Of a stretch of DNA of 64,000 nucleotides, positions 924 to 53,732 are shown piece after piece (within the stretch, counting starts at the first letter, position 1; each line of letters begins with the position of its first letter). Location of the stretch: positions 39,071-103,070 of the forward strand of contig CALUWE010000006.1 of NCBI GenBank assembly GCA_944324425.1. The letters are read 5' to 3'. Below the pieces are notes generated by a model. It searched no databases. It was not told the DNA's origin and was given only the letters and a program-made list of their open reading frames with translations. The DNA is from Candidatus Gastranaerophilales bacterium (GTDB lineage Bacteria > Cyanobacteriota > Vampirovibrionia > Gastranaerophilales > Gastranaerophilaceae). The position numbers and the translations under genes were made by a program.

Positions 924-1001
924 TGGCGGGGACGACGGGGATCGAACCCGCGACCTCATGCGTGACAGGCATGCGCTCTAACCAATCTGAGCTACGCCCC
1001 C
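924..1001 (-). tRNA. tRNA-Asp (anticodon GTC), CCA encoded
   Basis: Reverse complement is GGGGGCGTAGCTCAGATTGGTTAGAGCGCATGCCTGTCACGCATGAGGTCGCGGGTTCGATCCCCGTCGTCCCCGCCA. It has a 7-bp acceptor stem (one G-U), a GCTC/GAGC D-stem, a CATGC/GCATG anticodon stem with loop CTGTCAC, a GGTTCGATCC T-arm and discriminator G73. Confidence 0.93.
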
Positions 1002-1818: not shown

Positions 1819-1847
1819 ACTATAAAATGAACAAGGGCCATTGTCAA
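1819..1847 (-). promoter_or_regulatory. sigma70-type promoter of rplU-rpmA
   Basis: On the minus strand: TTGACA (1847-1842), a 17-nt spacer, then TATAGT (1824-1819). Confidence 0.6.
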
Positions 1848-1866: not shown

Positions 1867-3246
1867 TTAAAAAAGGTATTTTGACAAAGCATTTTTATCA
1901 AAAAATTCAATTTCGTCTTTGTTATGAATAAATAAAAGGCAGGTTATAACAGATTTAAACATTGAAAATTCAGGGTATGAAAACTTTCTTCTTAATTCAT
2001 CCATATTATCTGCTAAAAATTCCGTTATAAGAGTTTTATTCTTCAAAGTTAAGGATGTGAAAAAATCCAGCCCTTCTTTGGTTGCAATACCCTCAAAATA
2101 AACAATATCCGGCGATTGAAATTCAATATATCTCATGGCCTTATCTAAATTAAAACCGACAGATTCATTTAATTCAGACTGAATAACGTTTTTCAATTTA
2201 TATTTTGCAATACTCTCTAATGTCATTGCTGTTTTATTTTTGGGTATTAATTCATCCAAAATTGAGTAAACAAGATGCGTTTTACCTGAAAGTGAGCTTC
2301 CGCAAACAAGAACAACTCCGGGGGTTAAAAGTGCATTTTTTAATTTTGAAATCGTGTCTTCATCCTTAATTAATTCCATTAATTTTTTTGGCGGATGATA
2401 AATTTTTAATAAAATCCTCTCGCCTGAAATTGTTGGGTATGCTGAAATGCTTGCGGTTAAACTGATATTATCGACATTAAAAGTTAATTTCCCAAGCTGC
2501 GGAATTTCAGATATTGTTGGGTCAAGTGCGCATAATGACTTCAGCATTTGAATAAAAGGGCTTATTAAAAGCGAAGGGATTGAGCCTGTTGAATAAGCTT
2601 CATCCTGCTTTTTAAAATATACCGTTAGAGAATCTGTCAGGTGTTCAAAATATAATTCATGGATATTTTCTTTTATTGCCTGCTTTAAAATACCCCTGAA
2701 TAAATTTTGAAGATGCTCTTCAGATAAATCTTCATTATGAAGTTCATCAATCCACCTGAAATTATCCTCTTTTTCAGTTACAATATCTTGAACCTTGCCT
2801 TTAAGATCATAATATTCATTGATTTTTTTCAAAATTGTATTTAAAGACCCCAAAACAGGTTCAATTGTTTTTCCCGTTCTTTCAATAATTTTATCTATTG
2901 CAAACAAATCCAAAGGGTCTGCCATAATAACGGTTAAAGTATCTTCAATTTGAAATAGAGGCAGCATTTTATAGGTTATTGCCTCTTTATAGCTGATAAA
3001 TTGAAGACATTTTTTATCAATTTCATAATCATCCAAATTAACGTACGGAATATGAAGCTTTTCTTCCAAAAATTTTAAAAGTTCAGCTTCCGTGATTAAT
3101 GAAGAATTAATTAAAACCTGCCCCAGATTTGTGTTTTGGGCATTTGCAATTTCTTGGGCACGTTCAATATCTTCAAAAGTTATGATATTATTTCGAACCA
3201 AGTCATATTTTAACTTATCTATGGTTTTATTTGTAACTAAATCCAT
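1867..3246 (-). CDS. GspE/PilB-family-derived P-loop protein with a T2SS-E N-terminal (MshEN-like) domain and degenerate ATPase signature motifs
   Basis: The N-terminus (NLGQVLINSSLITEAELLKFLEEK...YKMLPLFQIEDTLTVIMADPLDLFAIDKI) matches the GSPII_E N-domain. Walker A is GSSLSGKT and the SPDIVYFEG segment is Walker-B-like. Asp-box and His-box residues are not recognisable. Confidence 0.7.
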   Translation of the reverse strand: MDLVTNKTIDKLKYDLVRNNIITFEDIERAQEIANAQNTNLGQVLINSSLITEAELLKFLEEKLHIPYVNLDDYEIDKKCLQFISYKEAITYKMLPLFQIEDTLTVIMADPLDLFAIDKIIERTGKTIEPVLGSLNTILKKINEYYDLKGKVQDIVTEKEDNFRWIDELHNEDLSEEHLQNLFRGILKQAIKENIHELYFEHLTDSLTVYFKKQDEAYSTGSIPSLLISPFIQMLKSLCALDPTISEIPQLGKLTFNVDNISLTASISAYPTISGERILLKIYHPPKKLMELIKDEDTISKLKNALLTPGVVLVCGSSLSGKTHLVYSILDELIPKNKTAMTLESIAKYKLKNVIQSELNESVGFNLDKAMRYIEFQSPDIVYFEGIATKEGLDFFTSLTLKNKTLITEFLADNMDELRRKFSYPEFSMFKSVITCLLFIHNKDEIEFFDKNALSKYLF

Positions 3247-3249
3247 AAT

Positions 3250-3618
3250 TTATGCCTCAAGATATTTACGAACGCTTTTCAAAACTTCTTCAAATTCAAA
3301 AGGTTTTGTAATATATTCATTTGCGCCCGTTTCTTCACCTATTAATTTATCAGAATCTTGTCCGCGCGCAGTTACCATAACAATCGGAATGTGCTTATAT
3401 TTGTTGTCATACTTTAAAAGACGGGCAATTTTATAGCCGTTAATTTTTGGCATCATAACATCCAAAATAATTAAGTCGGGATTTTCTTCCTTTGCACATT
3501 TTAAACCCTCTTCTCCGTCATTTGCCGTCAAAACATCATAGCCTGTTGCCTTCAGCATAAAAGAAAGGGTCTCTGTTATATCTTTTTCATCATCTACGAC
3601 AAGAATTTTTTTCTGCAT
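3250..3618 (-). CDS. single-domain CheY-like response regulator
   Basis: Receiver residues are canonical: VVDDE, DLIILDVMMP, VMVTA and YITKPF. It lies 3 nt upstream of the GspE-like gene. Confidence 0.9.
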   Translation of the reverse strand: MQKKILVVDDEKDITETLSFMLKATGYDVLTANDGEEGLKCAKEENPDLIILDVMMPKINGYKIARLLKYDNKYKHIPIVMVTARGQDSDKLIGEETGANEYITKPFEFEEVLKSVRKYLEA

Positions 3619-3648: not shown

Positions 3649-5604
3649 TCAGGCATCTTTTTTATAAAATGCCTTTGATAATACTATATCACAACTTTTA
3701 AGGTTTATTTCATCTTCAATTTTTGAAACCATAAAATCAAATGCGCTTCTGTCTAACCCTTGCATATAAACCTGAGTTACATATTTATCGTTCTTTCGTT
3801 CCAAAAATTCTTTTGAAGTTTTTGTAAGCTTGATTATATTTGAATTTTTAAGATGGTTATAAAATTCAAAATCACTGTTTTCAATGATTTTTAAATATCC
3901 GGTAGATTCCGCTTCGTTTCTGATTTTTAAATTTAGTTCAGCCCTGAAAGCCTTTTCATCACTATAAGCCGGTATTATGAAATTAAAAGTTGAACCTTCA
4001 TTTTTAACGGAATCAACCCAGATTCCGCCCAAATGAGCATCAATAAAATGTTTTGTAATTGTAAGCCCAAGGCCTATGCCGCCCGTGTTTCTTGATAGAG
4101 TATTTTCAATTTGAGAAAATTTATCAAATATTTTTGGTATATCTTCTTTTTCAATGCCAACCCCCGTATCTTGAACGGAAATTTTAACGTATGCACCTGA
4201 ATACTCACCGTCTGAAGGTGTTATCAAAAGGCTCTTATCAGGGTTTTCAATTATGCCTGTTGAAATTCTTATTTTGCCGCCATCAGGGGTAAATTTAATC
4301 GCATTTGTTATAAGATTTGATATAATCTGATCAATTCTGTGCTGGTCAATATAAACATCAGGCAGATTTACATTGTTTTCCAAATTAAATTCAATATTTT
4401 TTTGTGCGGCCTGATTTTTAAAAGTATTATATGCAAGTTCAATTGAAGGCAAAAGCGAAGCTTTTGTAAATTTAAAATCAAACTTTCCTGTCTGCATTCT
4501 TGATAAATCCAACAAATCTTCAATAATGCCTGATAGCCTTGAAACATTTCTTTTTGCAATATTAGCAAAATTTTTGTTGACATCGCCGATAGCCCCGCCC
4601 TGTTCCGATAAAATTATACTTAAAGCATTATTAATAGGGGTCAATGGCGTTCTTAATTCATGAGATACAATTGAAACAAATTCAGATTTCATTCTTTCTA
4701 ATTTTTTCAATTGAATATTAGCATTTATTATATCCTCATATAAAATAGCGCTTCTTAACGGTGCCAAAATTTGATGAATTATGGATTGAAAACAGGTTAC
4801 ATCTTCTTTTGTAAATTTGTTTTTTCTGAATATTTCAATAACGCCTTCAAACTTATCTTTAATAACAATAGGTGCAATTAAAGAATCGTATTCATTAAAA
4901 GAATCGTCAAAATATTCATTTTTATATGAAGGCTTAACATTTTGAATTGTTTCAACCTCAAACCTCGATAATTTAAGGCTTGTAATCCCCACATCTTTTG
5001 CACCCAAAGAAAGCCTTTTAATCAAATTGGAATTAAATTCTTCCGTTGTTTTTTTAAGGGAATTTATATAAAACTTTAACTTATCCTCTTTAAGGTTATC
5101 CCAAAAAAGGGCTGTTGCCGTATCATAGCTTAAAATTCTCTCCAAGCTTTCAAAAGCGACTTCATAAAGTTTTTCTTTTTCCAAAGTGCCTGCAAATTTT
5201 GAACTTGCGTTATAGAATGCATCTATTTGGTACAAATTCTTTTTTAATTCCATATTTTCTTTATAAAGATTAATGAAATTTTGTTTATTTAAAACCGCCA
5301 AATTTATTTCATTTTTCAAAATTTCCGAATTAACCGGCTTTAAAAAAGTTTTAACAGGGGTTTTAATTTCATCTTTATTGTAAGTTTCCGTTATGTAAAA
5401 AATTTCAAATGTTTTATTTGTATTTTTAGCTAAAAGCTCAATTAAAATTGAGGCTGAATTTTCAATCGAAGAATCCAAAATAACGATATCCGACTCAAAA
5501 TTCAAAATATCGTCATACAAAGCTTCATAAAAACCGTTCGCTGTTTTTAAGCTGTATTCCTCTAAATTATATTTTTCGTTTGAAATTACAAATATATTTG
5601 TCAT
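3649..5604 (-). CDS. sensor histidine kinase (pseudo-receiver, coiled coil, GAF-like, HisKA, HATPase, plus a ~105-aa C-terminal extension)
   Basis: H-box SHELRTPLTPI, N-box ISNLITNAIKFT, G-boxes QDTGVGI and GGIGLGL. The N-terminal receiver-like fold lacks the acidic DD pair (VISNE). I place the start at ATG 5604; the in-frame TTG at 5613 is the alternative. Confidence 0.85.
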   Translation of the reverse strand: MTNIFVISNEKYNLEEYSLKTANGFYEALYDDILNFESDIVILDSSIENSASILIELLAKNTNKTFEIFYITETYNKDEIKTPVKTFLKPVNSEILKNEINLAVLNKQNFINLYKENMELKKNLYQIDAFYNASSKFAGTLEKEKLYEVAFESLERILSYDTATALFWDNLKEDKLKFYINSLKKTTEEFNSNLIKRLSLGAKDVGITSLKLSRFEVETIQNVKPSYKNEYFDDSFNEYDSLIAPIVIKDKFEGVIEIFRKNKFTKEDVTCFQSIIHQILAPLRSAILYEDIINANIQLKKLERMKSEFVSIVSHELRTPLTPINNALSIILSEQGGAIGDVNKNFANIAKRNVSRLSGIIEDLLDLSRMQTGKFDFKFTKASLLPSIELAYNTFKNQAAQKNIEFNLENNVNLPDVYIDQHRIDQIISNLITNAIKFTPDGGKIRISTGIIENPDKSLLITPSDGEYSGAYVKISVQDTGVGIEKEDIPKIFDKFSQIENTLSRNTGGIGLGLTITKHFIDAHLGGIWVDSVKNEGSTFNFIIPAYSDEKAFRAELNLKIRNEAESTGYLKIIENSDFEFYNHLKNSNIIKLTKTSKEFLERKNDKYVTQVYMQGLDRSAFDFMVSKIEDEINLKSCDIVLSKAFYKKDA

Positions 5605-5728
5605 AACAGGCAATATGATAGCAAATTAAAGGAAATGTGTCATAAATTTAACAAATATACAAGTTTTTTAAAGTTTTTAACCTTATCGTCGATATAAATT
5701 TTAAGGAAGGCAAGTTTTTGTATTAAAA

Positions 5729-8700
5729 ATGGAAATTAAAGGCAGCTACATTAATTTTAACAACGATGACAATTCAAGGGTAAGAAAAAACCCCGAACCT
5801 TCACCTGCGCCAAAACAAGATGAGAAAAAAACTCCCGAAAAAGAAACTCCCGTTAATCCCGAATATTGGCAAAACAGAGTAGGAATTTCGTTTGGAAACA
5901 AAAAAGAAGCTTCTGAAGAAAAAAATTATACAGATGCTCTTGAAGAACTTTTTGACAAAACACCTTTAGACAGCAGCTTTTCCTACCGGCTGTCAAATGC
6001 TGGCGCAAAAAAGCTTTATGAACTCATTCAAAAAGGAACATTTACACCCGAAGGAATAGCTGCACTCTCAAACAAGCTGAGTATATATACTGCCGAAGAC
6101 AGGGACGCCATCGAACCTCTTGTTGCCGCAGTATATGATATTTGCGCAAAAGAAAACAATGAAGCTGAAAACAATGCAAATGCCGAATATATTACAAATT
6201 TAGCTTCGCCGTTTTTATCGGTACGAAGAATAACGCCCAAAAATTTTATAGCCGCAATAAAAGATTTTACCCCGTTTGAAAGAACAGCAGCGGAATTTTT
6301 TGCGCAAAAAGGCAAAGAAGCTAATGAGTCCGCATTTGCCGAATTGGGCGATTTTAAAAAAACTGTTGCAAGTTTGGATGAAAATAATTTTGAAAGTTAC
6401 AAAACATCATTTGCTAAAAGAGGTGAAGGTTCAAGCCTTTGTGATGCAACATATATGATGAGTTGTTTCGTAAACCCGAAAACCAAAAAATATGATTCTT
6501 TAATAGAAGAAAAGACAAAAGAATTTGAAGCAAAAAGGCAAAGCCTTGATTATATGAACCGCTTCTTCGGACACTCAGAAGTTAAAACAGCTAAAATTGT
6601 AAGAGCCATGGTCGATTTACAAACCGGACAAATAAGCGAAAAAGCCGTTAATTTTACAAACGACTATTTATTTGGCGATAAAGTTGAAACGGAAGATAAC
6701 AAGTTTGTTGCATTTATAAAAAATCTGCGCTCCAAAAGATACATTTTTGCACCGCCATATTATAAAGACTCGTACTCAATGCGTGAAAACTTTGCAGATT
6801 TACTTGACGACATTAAAGATAACACAGGCGCTTTTAACGATACAAACATAAAATATATGTCCAAGTTCCTTGAATCTAAATCAGGCTGGGGCGGCTTCAG
6901 CGATGAATTAAACTTTTTTAAATTCCTTAAAGACGAAAACGGCGTAGCTGAAAGAGGCAAATTTGCTTTTGCACAAAAAATTCTTGATGAAACAAACGAC
7001 ATGAAAAAAACAGGCGAAATTGTGCAAATTTATGCAACCATCGGAAAGAAAAACTTTGACAGCATCTATAAATTCCTAAGAAAAATGTACGACAAAGAAG
7101 ATAGAAACATTTATCAAAATCTTGCCGTAATTGCAAAAAATTGTTTTGATGACAAAGGGAAACCGATAGAAGACAAAATTGAGCTTATCAGAGAATTAAC
7201 AAACGATTTTTCATATGCCGTTAATTTTACCGATCCAATGTTTGAAGCAATGGAAAATGAATATTGCAAAAAAATACTTTTATCCATTAAAGACAGACCG
7301 GGATTTTCCGGATATGATATTTTGGGGCTTTCAAACTTAAAACAAGAGCATTGCGATAAAAACGGCGAAATTACACCCCATGCAAAAGAAAAACTTGAAG
7401 AGTTCCTAAAAACCGGAATTACTCTCGGCAGGCTTCCTTTATTGTATAATTCCTGCTTTAGCAAAAACGAAAACGGCGAGCAAGAATTTGATGAAAAGGG
7501 TTTTCAAAATATATTGGATTTAATTTCATTCAAAACAGACGAATGCAAAAGATTCGGAAAAGTGCTCCTGTCAAGAATGAATAGCGAAGTTTTTATTGAC
7601 ATTGCAAAAAACAGTTTAAATGTTAATACAATGAAATTCAAAAGCAAAATAACTTTGTACGAAGAGCTTAAAAAACTCAATTTTGATAATATAGGTGAAA
7701 ACGATCCGATTGCGGCAAATTTGAAAAAATTATTCTATGAAATTGATGCAAGCTTAACTGCAGATTCGCATTCTCTGCCTGTCGACAGAAAATATATCGA
7801 ACAATTTGCACACAACATTTTCTCTATCGCTAAAAACGGAGAATACAGTGATTTTGAAGCAACCTTAAAAGATTCCATATCAAAATTGGAAAAAATGGAA
7901 AACGGTCTTCCATTAAGCTACTCAAGAGAAGATTTTCTTTCTGATTTGTCTCAGCTTTTAGATAGCGAAGAAAAAATTAAAGCTGTTGAAAACAAAACAG
8001 AGGTAAGTTTTAACTATGAAAAAAACGGCAGCGAAATAAACATTTTAGGATACGAAGGTATTTTAACACCGGATAAATTAGACAGAAGTGATAAATTTGA
8101 AAATGAAATCTACGGCCTTTGCCACAATTTTATGTATAACAACAGCGTAAATACAGGTGATAAAAAACTGGACGAACAGCTGAATTCAATAATAAAAGCG
8201 GCGCCCGAATTTATAAATACAATAGGAAAAAAACAGCATGGAACCCACAAACACACCTTGGATATTCACCAGCTGCTTGTACTTGCCAGATCAATAGACA
8301 ATCCCGACTATTTGAAATTAGATGACTTAGATAAGGCAATGCTCAAAATAACCGCTCTGTTTCACGATATAGCAAAACAGGAAGGAGTTGTTGATAAAGG
8401 CCACCAAGAACCCTCCGCACTATATTCAAGGGGTATTGTCAGGAAATTCATAAAAAATCCTGAAACAGTCGAAAGAATTTATGAATTAATAAAAAATCAC
8501 CATTGGACAGAAGAATATGCCAATGCGGCGGACAGAGAAGAAGCCGCAAAAGCCATAGCGTTTAAATTTCGCCGTCCGAACGACTTTGAAATTGCAAAAA
8601 TAATCGCAAGGTCAGATTTAATGTCTGTTAATGACGAATTTTACGAGCCGCGCAAAGACATCTTAACAGAAGACAAATTGCTGCCCATTGAAGAAAAATT

Positions 8701-42461: not shown

Positions 42462-43769
42462 TTAAAAACGATTCAAAAACTTATCTATTGTATTAATTAA
42501 GGTTTTTATACTATACGGCTTCGGAAGATAAAAATCCGCACCTTTAGATAAAATGGTTTTTTTGTCTAAAATATTTGTTGAAAAAATAATTGTCGGCATT
42601 TTTTCTTTTCTTCTTCGATAAATTTCTTTCGCCGTATCAAGAGCCATCAGCCCTTCTTTTTCATTTTCCGTTCCCCAATCCAAAATAATTAAATCGGGTA
42701 AGTAGTCAACAAGACAATCGGTAAAATTTTCATATTTATCGCATATTTTAGTTGAATAGCCGTTTATTATGCAATTTGTTTCAATCAAAAGTCCCAAGGC
42801 TTCGTCTTTTTCCATAATTAAAATTTTGTTTTTTTGAATATCGTCAACCGAGCCGTATAACTTGGGCCTGTCTACTATATAAGTTGATTTTTCGGCATTT
42901 TTTAGAGGTTTTATTAAATTGAAAAGATTTTGAATTATTTCATACGAATTTTTATGCAGTATGGAATTATACTCAATAACAGCTTCTGAAATTTTCATTA
43001 AAGAAACCTTTTCTTCTTCTTTTGAATTCGATGAATTTATTGTAAATTTGTTCGAATAATCAAATTCCGTATAAAACCTGTTTAGAATATTATCAAACGC
43101 AAAAGCGAAAAATTCGGCCAATTTTTCAGCTTTAACAGGGCTTGTAACAACCAAAAACTCATTTTGACTCCAATGCCCGACCGTATCTTCTTTTGTAACC
43201 GCAGAAGATATTATTGCCCCTATTGTCTGCAAAACCTTTTCTGAAGCAATTTCACCGTATATTTCTCTGTAATTGTTAATACCGTCCAGTGAAACTAAGA
43301 TTGCGGAAAATGTTTTATTCCGCTTTATTATTCTGTTCAAATTTTTTCTTGTTAATTTTTCGTTCAAAAAACCTGTAAGCGGGTTAATCAAGCTTTCAAT
43401 ATGCCTTCTGATATGGGCATTTATTCTTGCTTGAAATTCCTTATTCGGCATTGATTCAGACAGGAAATCGTCGGCACCGGCATTTAAAAGCTCAAGCTTA
43501 TCCGATAATTCATCCGATTTTGAAACCGCAATAATAGAAGGTCTGAAATTATAGGTTAAAATTCGAACCTTTTTGATAAATTCTTTTATATTTTCTTCAA
43601 TTGTGTCTGAAATTATAATAAATTCAAACTCATTGTTTCTGATTTCGCCTATTGCATCCGATAAATTGTTAACAAGAACAACATCTGCCATTAATAATTT
43701 AAGAATTTTTTTATAACGAACCGCAAGCTCGCGTCTTTTGCTTATAATAAGCACGGAAGGATTATACAT
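42462..43769 (-). CDS. response-regulator-like protein: atypical REC, degenerate GGDEF domain, C-terminal REC
   Basis: The GGDEF-fold region begins PLTGFLN, but the active-site motif reads HWSQNEF instead of GGDEF/GGEEF. The C-terminal receiver has DLIILDW, IIFST and YLPKP. Confidence 0.75.
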   Translation of the reverse strand: MYNPSVLIISKRRELAVRYKKILKLLMADVVLVNNLSDAIGEIRNNEFEFIIISDTIEENIKEFIKKVRILTYNFRPSIIAVSKSDELSDKLELLNAGADDFLSESMPNKEFQARINAHIRRHIESLINPLTGFLNEKLTRKNLNRIIKRNKTFSAILVSLDGINNYREIYGEIASEKVLQTIGAIISSAVTKEDTVGHWSQNEFLVVTSPVKAEKLAEFFAFAFDNILNRFYTEFDYSNKFTINSSNSKEEEKVSLMKISEAVIEYNSILHKNSYEIIQNLFNLIKPLKNAEKSTYIVDRPKLYGSVDDIQKNKILIMEKDEALGLLIETNCIINGYSTKICDKYENFTDCLVDYLPDLIILDWGTENEKEGLMALDTAKEIYRRRKEKMPTIIFSTNILDKKTILSKGADFYLPKPYSIKTLINTIDKFLNRF

Positions 43770-44499
43770 TCTTCACCCCTTCCGTTTTTATGGCGCTTAA
43801 TTTTGTAAAATCTTCCAAAACAAAAACGGGAAAACCGATGAGAAATTCAACGCTTTTTTCTTTTTCATTGCACTTCACTTCAATTTCACCGTTCATTTTT
43901 AAAACCAAATTTTTAACAATAAAAAGCCCTAAGCCGGATCCTTGTGTTTTTGAAGTTAGGTAAGTTTGGGTTCTGTAAAATTTATCAAAAATTTTTTCTT
44001 TTTCACTCTCTTCTATAATTTCACCGTAATTTTTTACGGAAATATAATTCTTTCCGCCCTTAATATAGGTTTTAATTTCTGCAACATTTGAACCGTTTGA
44101 GTATTTACAGGCGTTATCCAAAATGTTTATAAAAATTTGCTCCAGAGCATCTTTATCCAAACTTGAAAATAAAGAAGGGGAAAGATTTTTTTTAAAAATA
44201 AAATCTTTGTAATTAACTTTAACAACATCAATTGACTTTAACAAAATTTCATTTATATCTGTTTTTTTAAACACCAAATTGTTATATTCAACGTCGCTGT
44301 CCGCAGCATTCAGCGCATTTTCAACAAGGTTTATAAGCCTTATTGACTGTTCTTTTATAATATTTAAAAATTTCTTTTTTTGTTCATCATTTAATTTATC
44401 ATAAGAACCCAAAATGGTTTCCGCAAACCCCTTTATGCTTGTTAAGGGGGTTCTTATCTCATGGTTTATTGTAGATAAAAATTCTTTTTTATTATCCAT
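43762..44499 (-). CDS. soluble histidine kinase core (HisKA and HATPase only)
   Basis: H-box INHEIRTPLTSIKGF, N-box ILDNACKYS and G2 box GSGLGL. There is no TM segment or sensor domain. It overlaps the downstream regulator gene by 8 nt. Confidence 0.85.
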   Translation of the reverse strand: MDNKKEFLSTINHEIRTPLTSIKGFAETILGSYDKLNDEQKKKFLNIIKEQSIRLINLVENALNAADSDVEYNNLVFKKTDINEILLKSIDVVKVNYKDFIFKKNLSPSLFSSLDKDALEQIFINILDNACKYSNGSNVAEIKTYIKGGKNYISVKNYGEIIEESEKEKIFDKFYRTQTYLTSKTQGSGLGLFIVKNLVLKMNGEIEVKCNEKEKSVEFLIGFPVFVLEDFTKLSAIKTEGVKNV

Positions 44500-44985: not shown

Positions 44986-46338
44986 ATGAGCATTAACAAT
45001 GTTTCTAATGTATCAGATGCACTAAAGTACGTAAGCGGAATGGAAGTTTCGGAAACGGAAAGAAGTATTGTATCAGATGTTAAAGATTCTATTTTCAACC
45101 CGATAACTCTTGCCTTCGGTGCACTGGAAGTTAACTCGTCTTTAAAAAGCAACTTGGATGCAAAAAGCATAAAAGATGTTTTTGAAAAGATAAAAACCGT
45201 AGGCGAAGTTGAAAAAGGCAGCAAAATAGGAACAGCCATAAGAAGCACAAATATCGGCGAACAGTGGACAAACACCGTAAGCAACGTAATAAAAAAAGCA
45301 GACGACAAAATTGCAGAAAAAGCAGCAAAAGCCGCAGCTAAAAGCACGGCAAGCGAAGTTGCGGAAACCGCACTTACCACAACAACAAAAGAAGCTGCGG
45401 AAGGTGCTTCAAAAGGTATATTATCAACAATTAAATCAGGCTTCAGCAAAGTCGGAAGCGCAATATCAAGCGTTGTAAGCAAAATCCCCGGGGTAAGCAA
45501 ACTTAAAGAAGGCTTATCTTGGTTGAGCAAAACTAAAGTCGGCAAAATTGCAAAAGGTACAGGTGCTGTCGGTATGATGGCATTTGAAGGAATTATCGGT
45601 CTTGTAACCGAAGTAATTCCTGCATTTGCACAAGGCGGTTTTGACTCAGGTATGAAACAACTCGGTAAAACCGCAATTAAAACCGCATCAACAGGTATAG
45701 GTTGGGCGGCAGGTACAATGGGCGCAACAGCATTGGGTGCAGCAATCGGTTCAATATTCCCGGGTGTCGGCACGGTTATCGGCGGTGCAATCGGTACATT
45801 TATCGGCGGCATGTTGGGTTCAACCGTATGTAACGGCATTACAAGCAAAATTGTAGGAAAATCTGAAGTTGAAATCCTTCAAGATGAACAATTTGAAGAA
45901 GCAGCAAGCCAAGTGGCAAATGATACAAACGCAATGAATGAATTAAACCAAATGGTTGCAGCACAAGTTCAAGCAGACATTGCAAACGGCACTGTTGATG
46001 AAGACACGGAAAAAATGGCGGCACTTTTAAATTCCGGCGCTTTCACAACAACATCTGCCGCAACTAATCCTTATACGGTAACAAACCTCCAAACAACAAC
46101 ACCTGCAACAAATACAACAACGACAACAACAACTCAAACCAATACAAGTCCCGCAAATTCATCATATTGGACAGAAATGGCCAAAAAGGCAGCAAGCGGC
46201 GACACCAGCATATATAATATTTCGGATGAAAAACTTGATTCGGTATTTTCAAACCCCAATACCAACGGAATCTCAACCGATACATCCTTAAGCAAAGAAG
46301 CAACGAACGAAAACGTTAACTACTTCGCTGTCGGTTAA
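44986..46338 (+). CDS. hypothetical protein: amphipathic K/A/S/T-rich region, glycine-zipper hydrophobic core, Thr-rich tail
   Basis: GWAAGTMGATALGAAIGSIFPGVGTVIGGAIGTFIGGMLGS forms a GxxxG ladder, and the tail reads TTTPATNTTTTTTTQTNT. No signal peptide recognised. Confidence 0.7.
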   Translation: MSINNVSNVSDALKYVSGMEVSETERSIVSDVKDSIFNPITLAFGALEVNSSLKSNLDAKSIKDVFEKIKTVGEVEKGSKIGTAIRSTNIGEQWTNTVSNVIKKADDKIAEKAAKAAAKSTASEVAETALTTTTKEAAEGASKGILSTIKSGFSKVGSAISSVVSKIPGVSKLKEGLSWLSKTKVGKIAKGTGAVGMMAFEGIIGLVTEVIPAFAQGGFDSGMKQLGKTAIKTASTGIGWAAGTMGATALGAAIGSIFPGVGTVIGGAIGTFIGGMLGSTVCNGITSKIVGKSEVEILQDEQFEEAASQVANDTNAMNELNQMVAAQVQADIANGTVDEDTEKMAALLNSGAFTTTSAATNPYTVTNLQTTTPATNTTTTTTTQTNTSPANSSYWTEMAKKAASGDTSIYNISDEKLDSVFSNPNTNGISTDTSLSKEATNENVNYFAVG

Positions 46339-50780: not shown

Positions 50781-53732
50781 ATGAATAAGGTAGCAAAAAC
50801 ACTGCCTTTAATTATTTCTTTCGGCTGTTTTAACGTATTGCCGGCCGTTGCCGAAATAAACAAGGCATACAATCTTATTGAAGCGGAAAACAAAACGGAT
50901 GACACAATTACAAAGTACACCTACAATTGGGAAACAAACACTTTTGACCCAAAATATTACAATTTGGAGATAAATCCGACAGAATACGGGAATATTAATT
51001 CGTATGATGACATAAAATATTATACTTATGATTCATATGGCAAAATCACGGAAGGTAATAAAGAAAATGCTGTTTTTAAATATTATGTTGACAGCACGAG
51101 GCTTGCAGACTCTCAAATATATATAGATGAAAACAGCCTTATAAAAAATATTGATAAAGATTTCACAGGCTTTACAACAACTGCAATAGATTTTAGTAGC
51201 TTATATTTAGACAGCCTTGACAGTGTAACCGGAAATTTTTACAACAACACAACAACAAACGGCGAAGCAATCCTGAGCGACAGAGGCAGAATTACAAGCA
51301 TTTCAGGCAATTTTATAAACAATAGAAATAACTCAGGCTCAGGCGGCGCCCTGAAAGCATACGGTGCAGATTATATTGAAGGAACCTTTATTGGCAACAG
51401 TGCTTATCTGAGCGGGGGCGCTATATATGCAAATAATGCTTTTTTAAATACAATTGAAGCAAACTTTATTTCAAATAAAGCAGGTTACAATGGCGGTGCC
51501 ATATACAAAAAAGCGAATATGACAAGCATAAAAGGTGATTTCATAGGTAACTCCGCAGCGGTTTCGGGCGGGGCAATTTACAACATACCCTATGGAACCA
51601 GTCTCGAAAGGCTCGAGGGAGATTTCATAAAAAATACAGCGGGGACTTCAGGCGGAGCAATTTACAGTTCAGACCAAATACACAACATAAAAGGTGATTT
51701 TATAAGCAATTCTGCTGACGGCATAATGGACACAAAAGGCGGAGCTGTTTATCAAGCAGAAAATTCGGGCTATGGAATGTATTTTGTAAATTCATCATTC
51801 ATTGAAAACTATGCAAAAAGCTTAAATGGCGAAGCAAAAGGCGGCGCTATATATGCCCATGGCAAAGTAAATATTACTGCTCAAGATGGTCATACTTCAT
51901 TAATTAAAGGAAACTACACGGAATCAGGCGGCATAAAAGATGATAATGCAATATATATGGCTTTTGGCAAAAATATGGAATTACAAGATACAACATATTC
52001 AAACGATGGCAATACACAATATGCTACTTATGCTGCCGAACATCCAAGCTTAAATCTAAATGCTATTGACGGCGGCAATATTGTCATTGAAGATAAAATC
52101 AATGGCAACAAAGGCGGCGATATCATCACAATAACTTATGAATATGAAAACGGTAAATGGGTGGAAAAATCACAAACAAGCGTGAAAGACACGGGGTACA
52201 GTATTAACGTAAACGGCGATAAAACAGGTGCTGTTGTTTTTAACAACAGAGTTGATGGCGGTGCCGATATGAAATTGAGTGATACAAATCTTGTTTTAGG
52301 CAAAAACGATACCGTTTTATCAGGAAACGACATGACATTTACTTCCGGCAACTTTGTTATGACAAATAATTCCGTCGGAAATACAAATTTTAACAATTTC
52401 ACATTAACCGGAACTACAACAACATCAGCCGATGTTGACCTTTATAATGCCAAAATGGACAGAATTACCGCACAAAATTACAACATTATGGGTGATAGTT
52501 TTCTTGAAGTAAACGGATTAAACCTGCTAAATGATGCCAAAGAAGATAAAACGGTTATTTTATATGCTGACAAAGAGCTTGCAAACAATGTAAAATACAC
52601 AGGCGCAAACCCTGTTGCATATTCTCCTTTGTGGAAATATGACGTATCATATGCAACCCATGACGACGATTTGGGCTATTTTACATTTTCAAGAGGCTCA
52701 GACACAAACAACTATGAAAACTTTAACCCAAGCGCCCTTCCTGCAGTAATTTCAACAAACGCAGGCGGCTATACAACACAAATGCAAGTGTTTGAATATG
52801 CATTTAAACATTCAGACGCCTTTATGGCACTTCCTGCATTTGAAAGAATGGCAGTCATAAACGGCGACAAATATGCTTTGGCAAATTCCTCAGATACAAC
52901 CGATGTAGGGTATTTTTCACCCCTTATGACACAATATGACACAAGAGGAATTTGGTTAAAACCGTATTCTTCATTTGAAAATATTCCTTTAAAAAACGGC
53001 CCTAAAGTTTCTAACATAAGTTACGGTACTTTAGTTGGTTATGATACAAACTTAAAGCGTTTCAGAAACGGTTTTTCGGGCGTATTGACCGGATATTTGG
53101 GGTATAACGGCGCAAGCCAAAGATATTCAGGCATTGACACATATCAAAATGGCGGCCTTGTTGGCTTAACCGGTACTTTATATAAAGGTAACTTCTTCAA
53201 CGCAACAACAATATCGGCAGGCGCAACGGTCGGTTCATCAGACACAATGTATGGTCATGAAGATTACACAATGTTTATGTCCGGTATCGGTAACAAATTC
53301 GGTTATGACTTTGAATTTAAAGACGGCAAATTTATTTTCCAGCCTTCATTATTCTTAGCATATACATTTGTTAACACCTTTGACTATACAAACGCAGCAG
53401 GTTTAAAAATAGAGTCAGACCCATTGCATGCCATTCAAATTGCACCCGGTGTTAAATTCTTTATGAATACAAAAAACGGCTGGCAGCCTTATTTAAGAGC
53501 AGATATGGTTTGGAATCTGCTTGATAAAAATAAAGTAACCGCAGGTGATGTAAGACTTCCTGAAATGAGCATAAAGCCTTATGTTCAATATGGTGTCGGC
53601 GTTCAAAAAACATTCAAAAATGATACATTAACTTTCTTTGGCCAAACATTAATTCAAAATGGCGGCAGAAACGGCGTTTCACTGAATGCAGGCTTAAGAT
53701 GGGCAATCGGTAAAATAAAAAACAGAAGCTAA
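50781..53732 (+). CDS. Pmp-repeat (polymorphic outer membrane protein-type) autotransporter
   Basis: Signal peptide MNKVAKTLPLIISFGCFNVLPAVA. Seven consecutive FxxN...GGA(I/L/V) pairs between about nt 51231 and 51861. The C-terminal ~280 aa are rich in alternating aromatic beta-strand patterns, ending ...GVSLNAGLRW-AIGKIKNRS. Confidence 0.8.
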   Translation: MNKVAKTLPLIISFGCFNVLPAVAEINKAYNLIEAENKTDDTITKYTYNWETNTFDPKYYNLEINPTEYGNINSYDDIKYYTYDSYGKITEGNKENAVFKYYVDSTRLADSQIYIDENSLIKNIDKDFTGFTTTAIDFSSLYLDSLDSVTGNFYNNTTTNGEAILSDRGRITSISGNFINNRNNSGSGGALKAYGADYIEGTFIGNSAYLSGGAIYANNAFLNTIEANFISNKAGYNGGAIYKKANMTSIKGDFIGNSAAVSGGAIYNIPYGTSLERLEGDFIKNTAGTSGGAIYSSDQIHNIKGDFISNSADGIMDTKGGAVYQAENSGYGMYFVNSSFIENYAKSLNGEAKGGAIYAHGKVNITAQDGHTSLIKGNYTESGGIKDDNAIYMAFGKNMELQDTTYSNDGNTQYATYAAEHPSLNLNAIDGGNIVIEDKINGNKGGDIITITYEYENGKWVEKSQTSVKDTGYSINVNGDKTGAVVFNNRVDGGADMKLSDTNLVLGKNDTVLSGNDMTFTSGNFVMTNNSVGNTNFNNFTLTGTTTTSADVDLYNAKMDRITAQNYNIMGDSFLEVNGLNLLNDAKEDKTVILYADKELANNVKYTGANPVAYSPLWKYDVSYATHDDDLGYFTFSRGSDTNNYENFNPSALPAVISTNAGGYTTQMQVFEYAFKHSDAFMALPAFERMAVINGDKYALANSSDTTDVGYFSPLMTQYDTRGIWLKPYSSFENIPLKNGPKVSNISYGTLVGYDTNLKRFRNGFSGVLTGYLGYNGASQRYSGIDTYQNGGLVGLTGTLYKGNFFNATTISAGATVGSSDTMYGHEDYTMFMSGIGNKFGYDFEFKDGKFIFQPSLFLAYTFVNTFDYTNAAGLKIESDPLHAIQIAPGVKFFMNTKNGWQPYLRADMVWNLLDKNKVTAGDVRLPEMSIKPYVQYGVGVQKTFKNDTLTFFGQTLIQNGGRNGVSLNAGLRWAIGKIKNRS

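Follow-up and report, generated by a model that had tools for sequence, protein, structure and literature searches.

Assembly ATPases of the PilB/GspE/MshE type (for example Geobacter PilB, 5tsh/6olj, and Vibrio GspE, 4pht) combine two N-terminal domains, N1 and N2, with a P-loop C-terminal domain (CTD). Here we describe a gene of a Candidatus Gastranaerophilales bacterium whose product has the same domain layout and predicted fold and keeps Walker A, the first Glu of the Asp box and the sequence signature of the N1 C-terminal subdomain, but lacks the Asp-box D-P-x-E, the catalytic GE, the His-box histidines, the arginine fingers and the zinc subdomain. The gene, here called pseudo-PilB, lies in a 64,000-nucleotide stretch of contig CALUWE010000006.1 (positions 39,071 to 103,070; hereafter the window), to which all coordinates without a locus name refer. 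Unlike PilB, GspE and MshE, it is encoded with a histidine kinase (HK) and a receiver (REC), not with pilC/pilM-type genes. Our preferred reading, to which we give a probability of about 0.55, is that pseudo-PilB is a conserved PilB/GspE pseudo-enzyme serving as a non-hydrolysing, phosphorylation-responsive adaptor, the dedicated partner of a two-component pathway.

Several described systems resemble parts of this arrangement. Myxococcus xanthus PilB is a nucleotide-state-dependent signalling protein for exopolysaccharide (EPS) (PMC5544727, PMC11656802), and pseudo-PilB resembles a natural Walker-A-positive, hydrolysis-negative PilB of that kind; the M. xanthus protein, however, is a fully active motor that also performs another task, whereas pseudo-PilB apparently has the non-motor task only, with a two-component input of its own. 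Other signalling proteins act on type IV pilus function, several of them via the PilB N-terminal region. PatA-type regulators bind the PilB1 N-terminus in Synechocystis (the PATAN-REC regulators PixE, PixG and LsiR; bioRxiv 10.1101/2021.06.11.447907), and PilZ-FimX are Xanthomonas regulators that dock on the PilB N-terminus (PMC8389850). In Xanthomonas oryzae, cell motility is affected by EmvR, a single-domain response regulator, as described in work that discusses PilB extensively (PMC11973254); in X. campestris, PilB/PilT activity is under the control of DrdR, a regulator with tandem receivers (PMC13507683). In all of these the target is a real motor, with no pseudo-PilB intermediary; in Synechocystis, of the sister lineage of Melainabacteria, the binding module is a PATAN domain rather than a bare REC.

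Thermus PilF GSPII-A (PMC11731258, PMC12002112) has, like pseudo-PilB, an MshEN-type fold with one motif too degenerate for cyclic di-GMP (c-di-GMP), but in PilF the degenerate domain accompanies functional copies and the motor is active, whereas the corresponding face of pseudo-PilB carries family-specific invariants of its own. Searches of the open-access literature turned up no account of either a degenerate PilB paralogue or an HK-REC-PilB operon. We file the protein as a putative PilB/GspE-family pseudo-ATPase, hard-wired to a two-component system, that would work like a regulator-bound PilB N-terminus.

A three-gene operon of kinase, receiver and pseudo-PilB

The operon is read from the minus strand and consists of three genes:

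3649..5613, minus strand: histidine kinase, 654 aa, first gene of the operon
3250..3618, minus strand: CheY-like response regulator, 122 aa, single domain, with the pocket residues D9, D10, D53, T83 and K105 intact
1867..3246, minus strand: pseudo-PilB, a 459-aa ATG-to-stop open reading frame (ORF) comprising N1 (MshEN/GSPII-type), N2 and a truncated P-loop CTD; third cistron

The kinase carries an H-box, SHELRTP, at residue 317, within HisKA (residues 308–376, 59.7 bits) and followed by HATPase_c (residues 423–549, 89.2 bits) and a C-terminal extension of ∼100 aa. Upstream of these lie a REC-like domain (residues 3–128) and a GAF domain (residues ∼140–297). A profile of the first 300 residues matched receiver domains in the PDB over residues 3–128 (E 4e-11), the acidic pair of this REC-like domain being replaced by S-N, and Pfam GAF was matched after the REC-like region in 10 of 15 kinase orthologues. 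Because these domain matches are accompanied by no hydrophobic segment, the protein reads as a soluble REC-like/GAF/HisKA/HATPase kinase. The receiver scores 102 bits against Pfam Response_reg and has no output domain. Between its stop codon and the ATG of pseudo-PilB there are 3 nt, and the 3′ end of the receiver gene contains a GAGG Shine-Dalgarno sequence; by this layout, pseudo-PilB is predicted to be translationally coupled to the receiver.

This gene order is conserved wherever it could be assessed. HK-REC lies directly upstream of pseudo-PilB in 81 of 83 Gastranaerophilales species loci (tblastn), and the other two loci begin at the gene itself, which makes 81 of 81 assessable loci; in all 81, the upstream receiver is 67–94% identical to that of the window. 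The same order occurs in L001–L003, and the trio is also present in six loci from Joint Genome Institute (JGI) metagenomes (L095–L099 and L101), while the operon flanks vary between loci and species. The three genes most likely form a cytoplasmic two-component pathway, HK to REC to pseudo-PilB, in which phosphate would be passed to a receiver with a dedicated partner.

Conservation and selection

At least 120 pseudo-PilB protein clusters are present in public data, at 66–100% identity and all 457–473 aa long, and their sources name them as Candidatus Galligastranaerophilus and Gastranaerophilales. A scan of species-representative genomes gave 574 relatives, of which the best 80 are all Gastranaerophilales/Melainabacteria records (59–97% identity). 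Ratios of nonsynonymous to synonymous substitution (dN/dS), calculated by the Nei-Gojobori method for the window gene against six orthologues, range from 0.02 to 0.11 across N1, N2, the CTD and the new C-terminal tail; for the pair with the least saturation (L004), dN is 0.017 and dS 0.65 (omega 0.026). The altered motifs are themselves near-invariant in 75 orthologues: GxxL(S/C)GKTH, M(T/S)(L/I)ES(I/V)xKY, FQSPDIxYFEGI and KN/DK(T/A)LITEFLA. All pseudo-PilB domains are under strong purifying selection, and the gene is not decaying.

The loss of several catalytic motifs together with a truncated C-terminus could point to a decaying pseudogene or an annotation artefact. This explanation is refuted by conservation in at least 80 species and by the dN/dS values; the ORF is intact and of constant length across the clusters, its altered motifs hardly vary, and its structural model (below) has a predicted local distance difference test (pLDDT) score of 90. 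We consider it almost certainly wrong.

Eight public metagenome-assembled genome records bear names from unrelated phyla, L007, L023, L025, L026 and L054 as 'uncultured Gammaproteobacteria' and L062, L073 and L079 as 'uncultured Muribaculaceae'. They carry a Gastranaerophilales-type operon at 60–88% identity and are probably taxonomic mislabels.

Family assignment and predicted fold

A first-pass annotation, made from the sequence without database searches, had assigned the N-terminus to the type II secretion ATPase (T2SS-E) N-terminal type, and profile searches bear this out: Pfam MshEN (PF05157) scores 65.2 bits (cutoff 23.1) over residues 65–149, and a phmmer search of PDB sequences matched MshE-N 5htl (E 9e-10). 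The peptides quoted in that annotation were all located by translation at verified coordinates within the ORF. Pfam T2SSE scores 66.8 bits (cutoff 24.9) and covers profile positions 5–216 of 370 only. The NCBIfam PilB equivalog TIGR02538 reaches 153.1 bits against a cutoff of 675.65, matched over profile positions 2–391 of 564, and the GspE equivalog TIGR02533 reaches 102.2 bits against 630.25. In the phmmer search, Geobacter PilB aligned with query residues 12–391 (E 8e-42), leaving the last 68 residues unaligned. These scores agree with a divergent member of the PilB/GspE family.

An AlphaFold 2 (AF2) model built on a 98-sequence alignment has a pLDDT of 90.0 and a predicted template-modelling score (pTM) of 0.66; it was used in place of an earlier run with 13 close homologues (pLDDT 59.5), which was unusable. 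N1 is predicted to form a four-helix bundle plus an alpha/beta subdomain (pLDDT 85–95). The best Foldseek matches of the model are GspE, PilB and PilF (E 3e-25 to 1e-20, ∼270 columns, 3.4–4 Å), among them GspE 4pht (E 3e-25) and PilB 5tsh_E (query-normalised template-modelling score 0.50, root-mean-square deviation 3.4 Å over 269 columns). As modelled, pseudo-PilB contains the N2 and RecA-like CTD fold of PilB/GspE. The domains and the linker between N1 and N2 are placed as follows:

2800..3054, minus strand: C-terminal subdomain of N1, the Pfam MshEN match, residues 65–149, with LHIPYVNLDDY and IPLFxIEDxLTVAMADPLDLF
2752..2754, minus strand: linker residue W165, between N1 and N2, invariant throughout the pseudo-family, shared by the divergent relative P0134 and found in 0% of 67 canonical PilBs
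2377..2721, minus strand: N2 domain, residues 176–290

The C-terminal subdomain of N1 is the best-conserved block of the family. The protein had also been called short for a motor ATPase, which holds against PilB/GspE but not against PilT-type motors, which are shorter; its length is explained by the deletion of ∼110 C-terminal residues. Source annotations name the proteins 'Flp pilus assembly complex ATPase TadA' or 'ATPase, T2SS/T4P/T4SS family', and databases mislabel pseudo-PilB as an active pilus ATPase.

Loss of the catalytic motifs

Motifs were mapped by pairwise hidden Markov model (HMM) alignment to Geobacter PilB, by a 26-sequence alignment and by a 98-sequence alignment that includes the 67 canonical PilBs, and the same correspondences were obtained in all three:

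2278..2301, minus strand: Walker A, intact; GSSLSGKT, residues 316–323 (canonical GPTGSGKT)
2200..2226, minus strand: Asp-box remnant; MTLESIAKY, residues 341–349 (canonical T(L/I)EDPVEY reads TLESIAKY)
2080..2121, minus strand: Walker-B remnant; FQSPDIVYFEGIAT, residues 376–389 (canonical RQDPDIIMVGEIRD reads FQSPDIVYFEGIAT)
2008..2049, minus strand: His-box remnant; TLKNKTLITEFLAD, residues 400–413 (canonical LTGHLVLSTLHTN reads LKNKTLITEFLAD)
2482-2511, minus strand: N2 arginine-finger segment; residues 246–255, SEIPQLGKLT against RRLPQDGRIR
1870..2073, minus strand: family-specific C-terminal tail, residues 392–459, under purifying selection; it replaces the ∼170-residue canonical C-terminus

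Walker A, described as intact in the first-pass annotation, does stand opposite the canonical GPTGSGKT, and the pattern GxxL(S/C)GKTH is kept in 75 of 75 Gastranaerophilales orthologues. The Asp box had been called unrecognisable, and the canonical E-D-P-x-E here reads E-S-I-A-K: D-P is gone and the last Glu is replaced by K348, invariant in the pseudo-family, but the first Glu, E344, is kept and is invariant in 98 of 98 aligned sequences. The Walker-B/catalytic-Glu segment reads SPDIVYFEG, as reported, against the canonical DPDxxxxGE, and the alignment places the Glu one position off, with G-E inverted to E385-G386. E385 thus lies one position before the canonical catalytic Glu; it is invariant in the family, at a position where 96% of the 67 canonical sequences have Gly. 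The His box, also said to be beyond recognition, reads KNKTLITEFL against TGHxxxxTxH, and both histidines are replaced at the aligned positions (K, L). In the AF2 model, the former His-box strand is predicted to persist, and it closes the core together with a short beta/alpha tail, where canonical PilBs have the zinc subdomain.

Two losses go beyond those noted earlier. The N2 arginine fingers are gone (ERRLPQDGRIR reads ISEIPQLGKLT, and within it the motif RxPQDGR reads EIPQLGK), and the CxxC..CxxC zinc subdomain is deleted along with the ∼110 C-terminal residues missing relative to canonical PilB. The possibility that the Asp and His boxes are merely offset was rejected: HMM, multiple-sequence and fold-anchored alignments all set the degenerate segments opposite the canonical boxes, so both boxes have been replaced. 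An offset of these boxes was the refutation that the first-pass annotation itself had named. Because five defining catalytic or structural features are absent, pseudo-PilB does not qualify as a PilB/GspE motor. From these changes we infer that it cannot run the hydrolysis cycle, catalysis having been lost and ATP binding retained.

An apparently remodelled N1 face

The MshEN domain is defined by two 24-residue motifs five residues apart (PMC5013675), with a consensus later extended to (R/K/L)LG... (PMC11731258). Regular expressions for the relaxed and the extended consensus were used as tests, the extended motif being (R/K/L)LGxxhhxxGhhxxxxLxxxLxxQ, in two tandem copies with a 5-residue spacer. 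The two motif positions in pseudo-PilB are:

3145..3216, minus strand: MshEN motif I remnant, residues 11–34, KLKYDLVRNNIITFEDIERAQEIA (KLKYDLVRNN...), with G3 replaced by K, G10 by N, h21 by Q and Q24 by A
3058..3129, minus strand: MshEN motif II, residues 40–63, NLGQVLINSSLITEAELLKFLEEK, following motif I after a 5-residue spacer

Motif I fails the relaxed motif at these four key positions (G3 being K13 of the protein), and motif II fails the strict consensus (R1 to N, G10 to S, Q24 to K) but passes the relaxed census motif (PMC5013675). Neither fits the strict or the extended consensus, while the scaffold and the 5-residue spacer are retained; the NCBIfam c-di-GMP-motif model NF053729 gives 33.1 bits, below its cutoff of 38. 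Among the 75 orthologues, none has two matches to the relaxed motif and 32 have none at all. Such degeneracy is not remarkable in itself, since 34 of 67 canonical PilB representatives also lack any match to the relaxed motif. The earlier description of a degenerate MshEN motif was therefore correct in its details, the R, G and Q of motif II reading N, S and K, and overstated in treating this as a special feature.

More telling is a set of 11 family-specific residues, each conserved in at least 93% of the pseudo-family but present in no more than 15% of canonical PilBs. The former c-di-GMP face carries seven of these: K13, Y14, D15 and R18 within motif I, N6 and T8 just upstream of it, and K63. 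C80, the linker residue W165 and, in the active site, the pair K348/E385 make up the rest. The clustering of family-specific invariants on the former ligand face points to remodelling under selection rather than decay, and a degenerate N1 face with invariant residues of its own suggests a new binding function.

Divergent relatives, receiver-linked PilBs and the likely origin

Relatives at 34–36% identity extend the association with two-component genes. HK-REC lies directly upstream of the divergent gene in L084 (HK-REC-P0140) and L085 (HK-REC-P0132), and L086 has the order REC-P0134. P0134 is a full-length degenerate form of 564 aa that has lost the Walker A Lys, the Asp box, the catalytic Glu and the His box and kept the zinc domain. 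P0140, by contrast with the full-length form, has 411 aa, has lost Walker A and retains MshEN as its only recognisable domain. Walker A is lost in the distant members P0130, P0131, P0136, P0137, P0140-142, P0145 and P0146; since Walker-A-negative relatives keep the operon, nucleotide binding is not essential to the ancestral or core role of the family. In an exhaustive search of representatives, short pseudo forms ranked ahead of all canonical PilBs, and the pseudo-PilB forms make up a small, lineage-restricted family.

Two side observations concern these loci. A GGDEF-domain gene (381 aa, L086:2372-3517) directly follows that for P0134 on the same strand, a possible link to c-di-GMP. In L084, fliL-fliM-fliN lie ∼2.7 kb downstream of the P0140 gene on the opposite strand (L084:11953-14725).

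Canonical PilBs with a linked receiver were found outside the lineage. In L091 and L093, non-melainabacterial contigs with a GC content of 0.43–0.44, a receiver 52–56% identical to the window REC stands directly upstream of a canonical PilB; other RECs in the same locus are only 31–35% identical to it, and the L091/L093 receivers are apparently orthologous to the window receiver. L091 (3967-7710) encodes a PAS-HK, a REC and a PilB of 569 aa, the same HK-REC-PilB gene order as in the window operon, and L093 (19-6255) encodes a methyl-accepting chemotaxis protein (MCP), CheB, CheR, a REC and a PilB of 562 aa; both PilBs retain all catalytic motifs as well as the zinc domain. L090/L091 also encodes another canonical PilB, P0158, ∼9 kb upstream. 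Among 18 long relatives sampled, P0163 and P0148 are catalytically intact REC-MshEN-T2SSE fusions, and REC is listed among the domain partners of MshEN (PMC5013675).

These cases share with the window operon a CheY-like receiver placed upstream of, or fused to, a PilB-type N-terminus. The REC-PilB pairs and fusions found elsewhere indicate that receiver control of PilB-type proteins is an existing design. In the canonical examples, which keep all catalytic motifs and the zinc domain, the receiver presumably tunes a working motor, whereas in the window operon the motor chemistry is gone and the regulatory architecture alone is left. The melainabacterial form is probably a receiver-controlled PilB that lost its motor, and the loss was most likely stepwise, from a full-length degenerate form (P0134) through a truncated Walker-A-positive form (the window protein) to Walker-A-negative forms.

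A possible association with type IV filament genes

In ∼920 kb of sequence flanking the operon we found eight prepilin-type genes, and the six that were scanned all score above the TIGR02532 cutoff; their N-termini include sequences such as ...KGFTLAEVLITL.... Five of the eight lie immediately downstream of pseudo-PilB, in two orientations and in clades 59–88% identical to the window protein:

L012:8169-9725, plus strand: prepilin gene
L014:9469-10437, minus strand: prepilin gene
L025:9371-10024, minus strand: prepilin gene
L062:9731-10474, plus strand: prepilin gene
L068:8747-9415, plus strand: prepilin gene
L025:1777-2289, L066:3-230 and L073:29-793: further prepilin genes

Against the five directly downstream, ∼1.1 would be expected by chance (rough binomial P ∼2e-3, uncorrected for phylogeny). 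A PilD-like peptidase is encoded at the edge of L085. We consider that pseudo-PilB probably acts on type IV filament machinery.

Published reports describe pilus genes in the wider lineage. For Ca. Gastranaerophilus termiticola, a TXSScan search reported pilA/B/C/T/D (PMC5877343); for Vampirovibrio, the published set of type IV pilus genes is full (PMC4451040). The TXSScan 'pilB' of Ca. Gastranaerophilus termiticola could be the pseudo-PilB gene.

Proposed mechanism and competing explanations

The adaptor reading can be set out as a series of steps. The soluble REC-like/GAF kinase would, to judge by its domains, sense an intracellular cue and autophosphorylate; it would then phosphorylate the adjacent CheY-like receiver, as the intact active-site residues and the invariant operon suggest. 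The phosphorylated receiver (REC∼P) would bind pseudo-PilB, probably at the remodelled N1 four-helix face or the N1-N2 linker, a step for which translational coupling, REC-PilB fusions, orthologous pairs and the published cases of regulators at the PilB N-terminus argue. The strict conservation of the P-loop in Gastranaerophilales suggests a retained ATP with a structural or allosteric role, and pseudo-PilB would hold it as such a cofactor without a hydrolysis cycle. Pseudo-PilB would then engage a partner of PilB, which could be the filament platform (PilC/PilM-type), a real motor or a downstream signalling target, and this engagement might, in the most speculative step, gate filament assembly or a linked surface behaviour. 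The first-pass annotation had likewise pictured a P-loop-keeping pseudo-motor repurposed for signalling, a proposal strengthened by the HK-REC operon, by purifying selection and by the retention of Walker A in all 75 orthologues.

A number of observations weigh against this reading. There are no pilus genes in the window or within 10 kb past its right end, and pilin adjacency was seen in only five of ∼83 loci, with a P value that takes no account of phylogeny. A canonical PilB of Gastranaerophilales was not found: there is no T2SSE paralogue in the window and no canonical PilB in ∼1.3 Mb of related loci, the best-scoring canonical relative, P0144, comes from Proteobacteria/Nitrospirota-type organisms, and the named top canonical representatives are from Firmicutes or KSB1. 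A distance tree could not place the pseudo-family beside the REC-linked PilBs because its distances are saturated (at least 1.2 substitutions per site); with its midpoint root on the long pseudo-family branch and unreliable bootstrap bookkeeping, this tree was not used as evidence. In a yeast two-hybrid assay, plain CheY-type response regulators of Synechocystis did not bind PilB1, and only those containing PATAN did (10.1101/2021.06.11.447907). Finally, ATP binding, absent hydrolysis and REC binding are all things that we infer from sequence, and the invariance of E344 and the displaced E385, together with the retained Walker A, makes a slow or atypical ATPase possible.

That last point leads to a rival explanation, in which pseudo-PilB has stayed an ATPase: a divergent motor, slow or of a switch type, that uses E344, E385 and the Walker A Lys/Thr. 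It might even be the PilB at work in this lineage, with the phosphorylated receiver as its activator. The universal retention of Walker A in the Gastranaerophilales orthologues, E344 in every aligned sequence, E385 throughout the family and the strong purifying selection on the CTD are all compatible with it, as are the prepilin genes that adjoin pseudo-PilB in five loci and the lack of a canonical PilB in the DNA examined; the 'pilB' reported in Ca. Gastranaerophilus termiticola could be pseudo-PilB itself (PMC5877343). However, elements needed for the PilB/GspE hydrolysis cycle (PMC11656802) have been lost together: the two His-box histidines, the two N2 arginine fingers, D and the last E of the Asp box, and the zinc subdomain. 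E385, moreover, is invariant even in relatives without a P-loop (P0140-P0142), so its conservation is not tied to catalysis, and the operon persists after Walker A loss. We regard an ATPase as unlikely. A purpose outside filaments, in which pseudo-PilB is a signalling scaffold that, for instance, modulates the HK/REC pair or regulates envelope or polysaccharide synthesis and its PilB ancestry is irrelevant to the present target, would fit the variable operon flanks and the absence of pilus machinery near the gene in the window. M. xanthus PilB offers a precedent in its pilus-independent signalling role in EPS control (PMC5544727), and genes for glycosyltransferases and rhamnan synthesis abound in the window, though these do not adjoin the operon. 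Yet the most conserved part of the protein is N1, the region through which PilB/GspE are thought to engage components of the inner-membrane machinery and which PATAN-type regulators bind (10.1101/2021.06.11.447907; PMC11656802), and prepilin genes are enriched immediately downstream; such a scaffold is unlikely too.

Pseudo-PilB could instead be mainly a cyclic-dinucleotide receptor, its N1 binding c-di-GMP or a related messenger and integrating that signal with the two-component signal. The two-motif scaffold with its canonical spacer, a motif II that passes the relaxed motif (PMC5013675), a motif I whose K at position 1 the extended consensus allows (PMC11731258) and a c-di-GMP-model score just under the cutoff all lean this way, as do the GGDEF gene that directly follows P0134 in L086 and the REC/GGDEF-like and YajQ-family proteins encoded in the window. 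Against this, c-di-GMP binding needs both MshEN motifs (PMC5013675, PMC11656802), and no orthologue has two matches while 32 of 75 have none. Motif I fails at four key positions, including G3, whose backbone contacts guanine (PMC11731258) and which is here the invariant K13, and the GGDEF-like protein of the window has no GG[DE]EF motif. We therefore hold a receptor of this kind to be improbable. A more specific variant of the adaptor reading, a 'decoy motor', is speculative and rather doubtful: REC∼P would load an ATP-locked, hydrolysis-dead PilB paralogue onto the type IV filament platform or into mixed rings with the real motor and so switch filament assembly on or off, with the former c-di-GMP pocket (K13/Y14/D15/R18/K63) as the phospho-receiver dock or a site for a different ligand. 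In its extreme version, there would be no canonical PilB, and pseudo-PilB would let a PilT-type ATPase drive both extension and retraction.

Other features of the window and of related loci

PADLOC gave no match for pseudo-PilB or the kinase and only generic REC matches for the receiver, and a known anti-phage defence system was rejected on this basis. The only RNA element found in the operon region is a tRNA gene at 927-1001 (minus strand; Rfam 66.6 bits), downstream of rpmA. The 126-bp gap between the pseudo-PilB stop codon and rplU contains a near-consensus promoter-like site, TTGACA-17-TATAGT (1819-1847, minus strand), so rplU-rpmA may have a promoter of their own; promoter-like matches in the operon region are no commoner than in shuffled sequence, and no terminator-like hairpin was found between pseudo-PilB and rplU.

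Divergent from the kinase gene, 5729-9511 (plus strand) encodes a 1260-aa protein whose sole Pfam match is a sub-threshold HD domain (21.9 against 22 bits). It has no hydrophobic segment and is not conserved beside the operon, where other species have a GCS2-family gene. A second two-component pair lies at 42462-44499 (minus strand), with a 245-aa HisKA/HATPase kinase that has no sensor domain (43762-44499). Its other member (42462-43769, 435 aa) combines a partial GGDEF match with a C-terminal REC and has no GG[DE]EF motif, and is therefore probably a degenerate cyclase. The minus-strand gene at 56135-56635 encodes 166 aa and is assigned to the YajQ family (PF04461) in the precomputed annotation of L087/L088; members of this family have been reported to bind c-di-GMP in Xanthomonas.

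The 983-aa product of 50781-53732 (plus strand) matches only a Chlamydia polymorphic-membrane-protein repeat and is possibly a surface adhesin or autotransporter-like. Three further plus-strand ORFs, 16989-20468 (1159 aa), 44986-46338 (450 aa) and 33-839 (268 aa), have no Pfam match at E ≤ 1e-3; for the 268-aa product, the gene at the left end of the window, the assembly index has no entry. One metagenome contig has, at a distance of ∼4.6 kb from the operon (L001:13996-14922), a gene for an iron-sulfur protein resembling LdpA, an input component of the cyanobacterial clock.

Implications

Pseudo-PilB would stand as a clear example, in bacteria, of a motor ATPase of secretion or pilus systems that has turned into a pseudo-enzyme and been retained for signalling, with evolutionary intermediates still visible, from canonical REC-linked PilBs through full-length degenerate and truncated Walker-A-positive forms to Walker-A-negative ones. 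Because selection keeps N1 in the pseudo-family, it also offers a natural experiment on the poorly understood role of this domain in PilB/GspE. Profile-based system finders could count pseudo-PilB as pilB, and inferences of a working extension motor in gut Melainabacteria may consequently be wrong. Gastranaerophilales are widespread uncultured gut bacteria, and a universally conserved cytoplasmic operon provides a handle on their surface behaviour.

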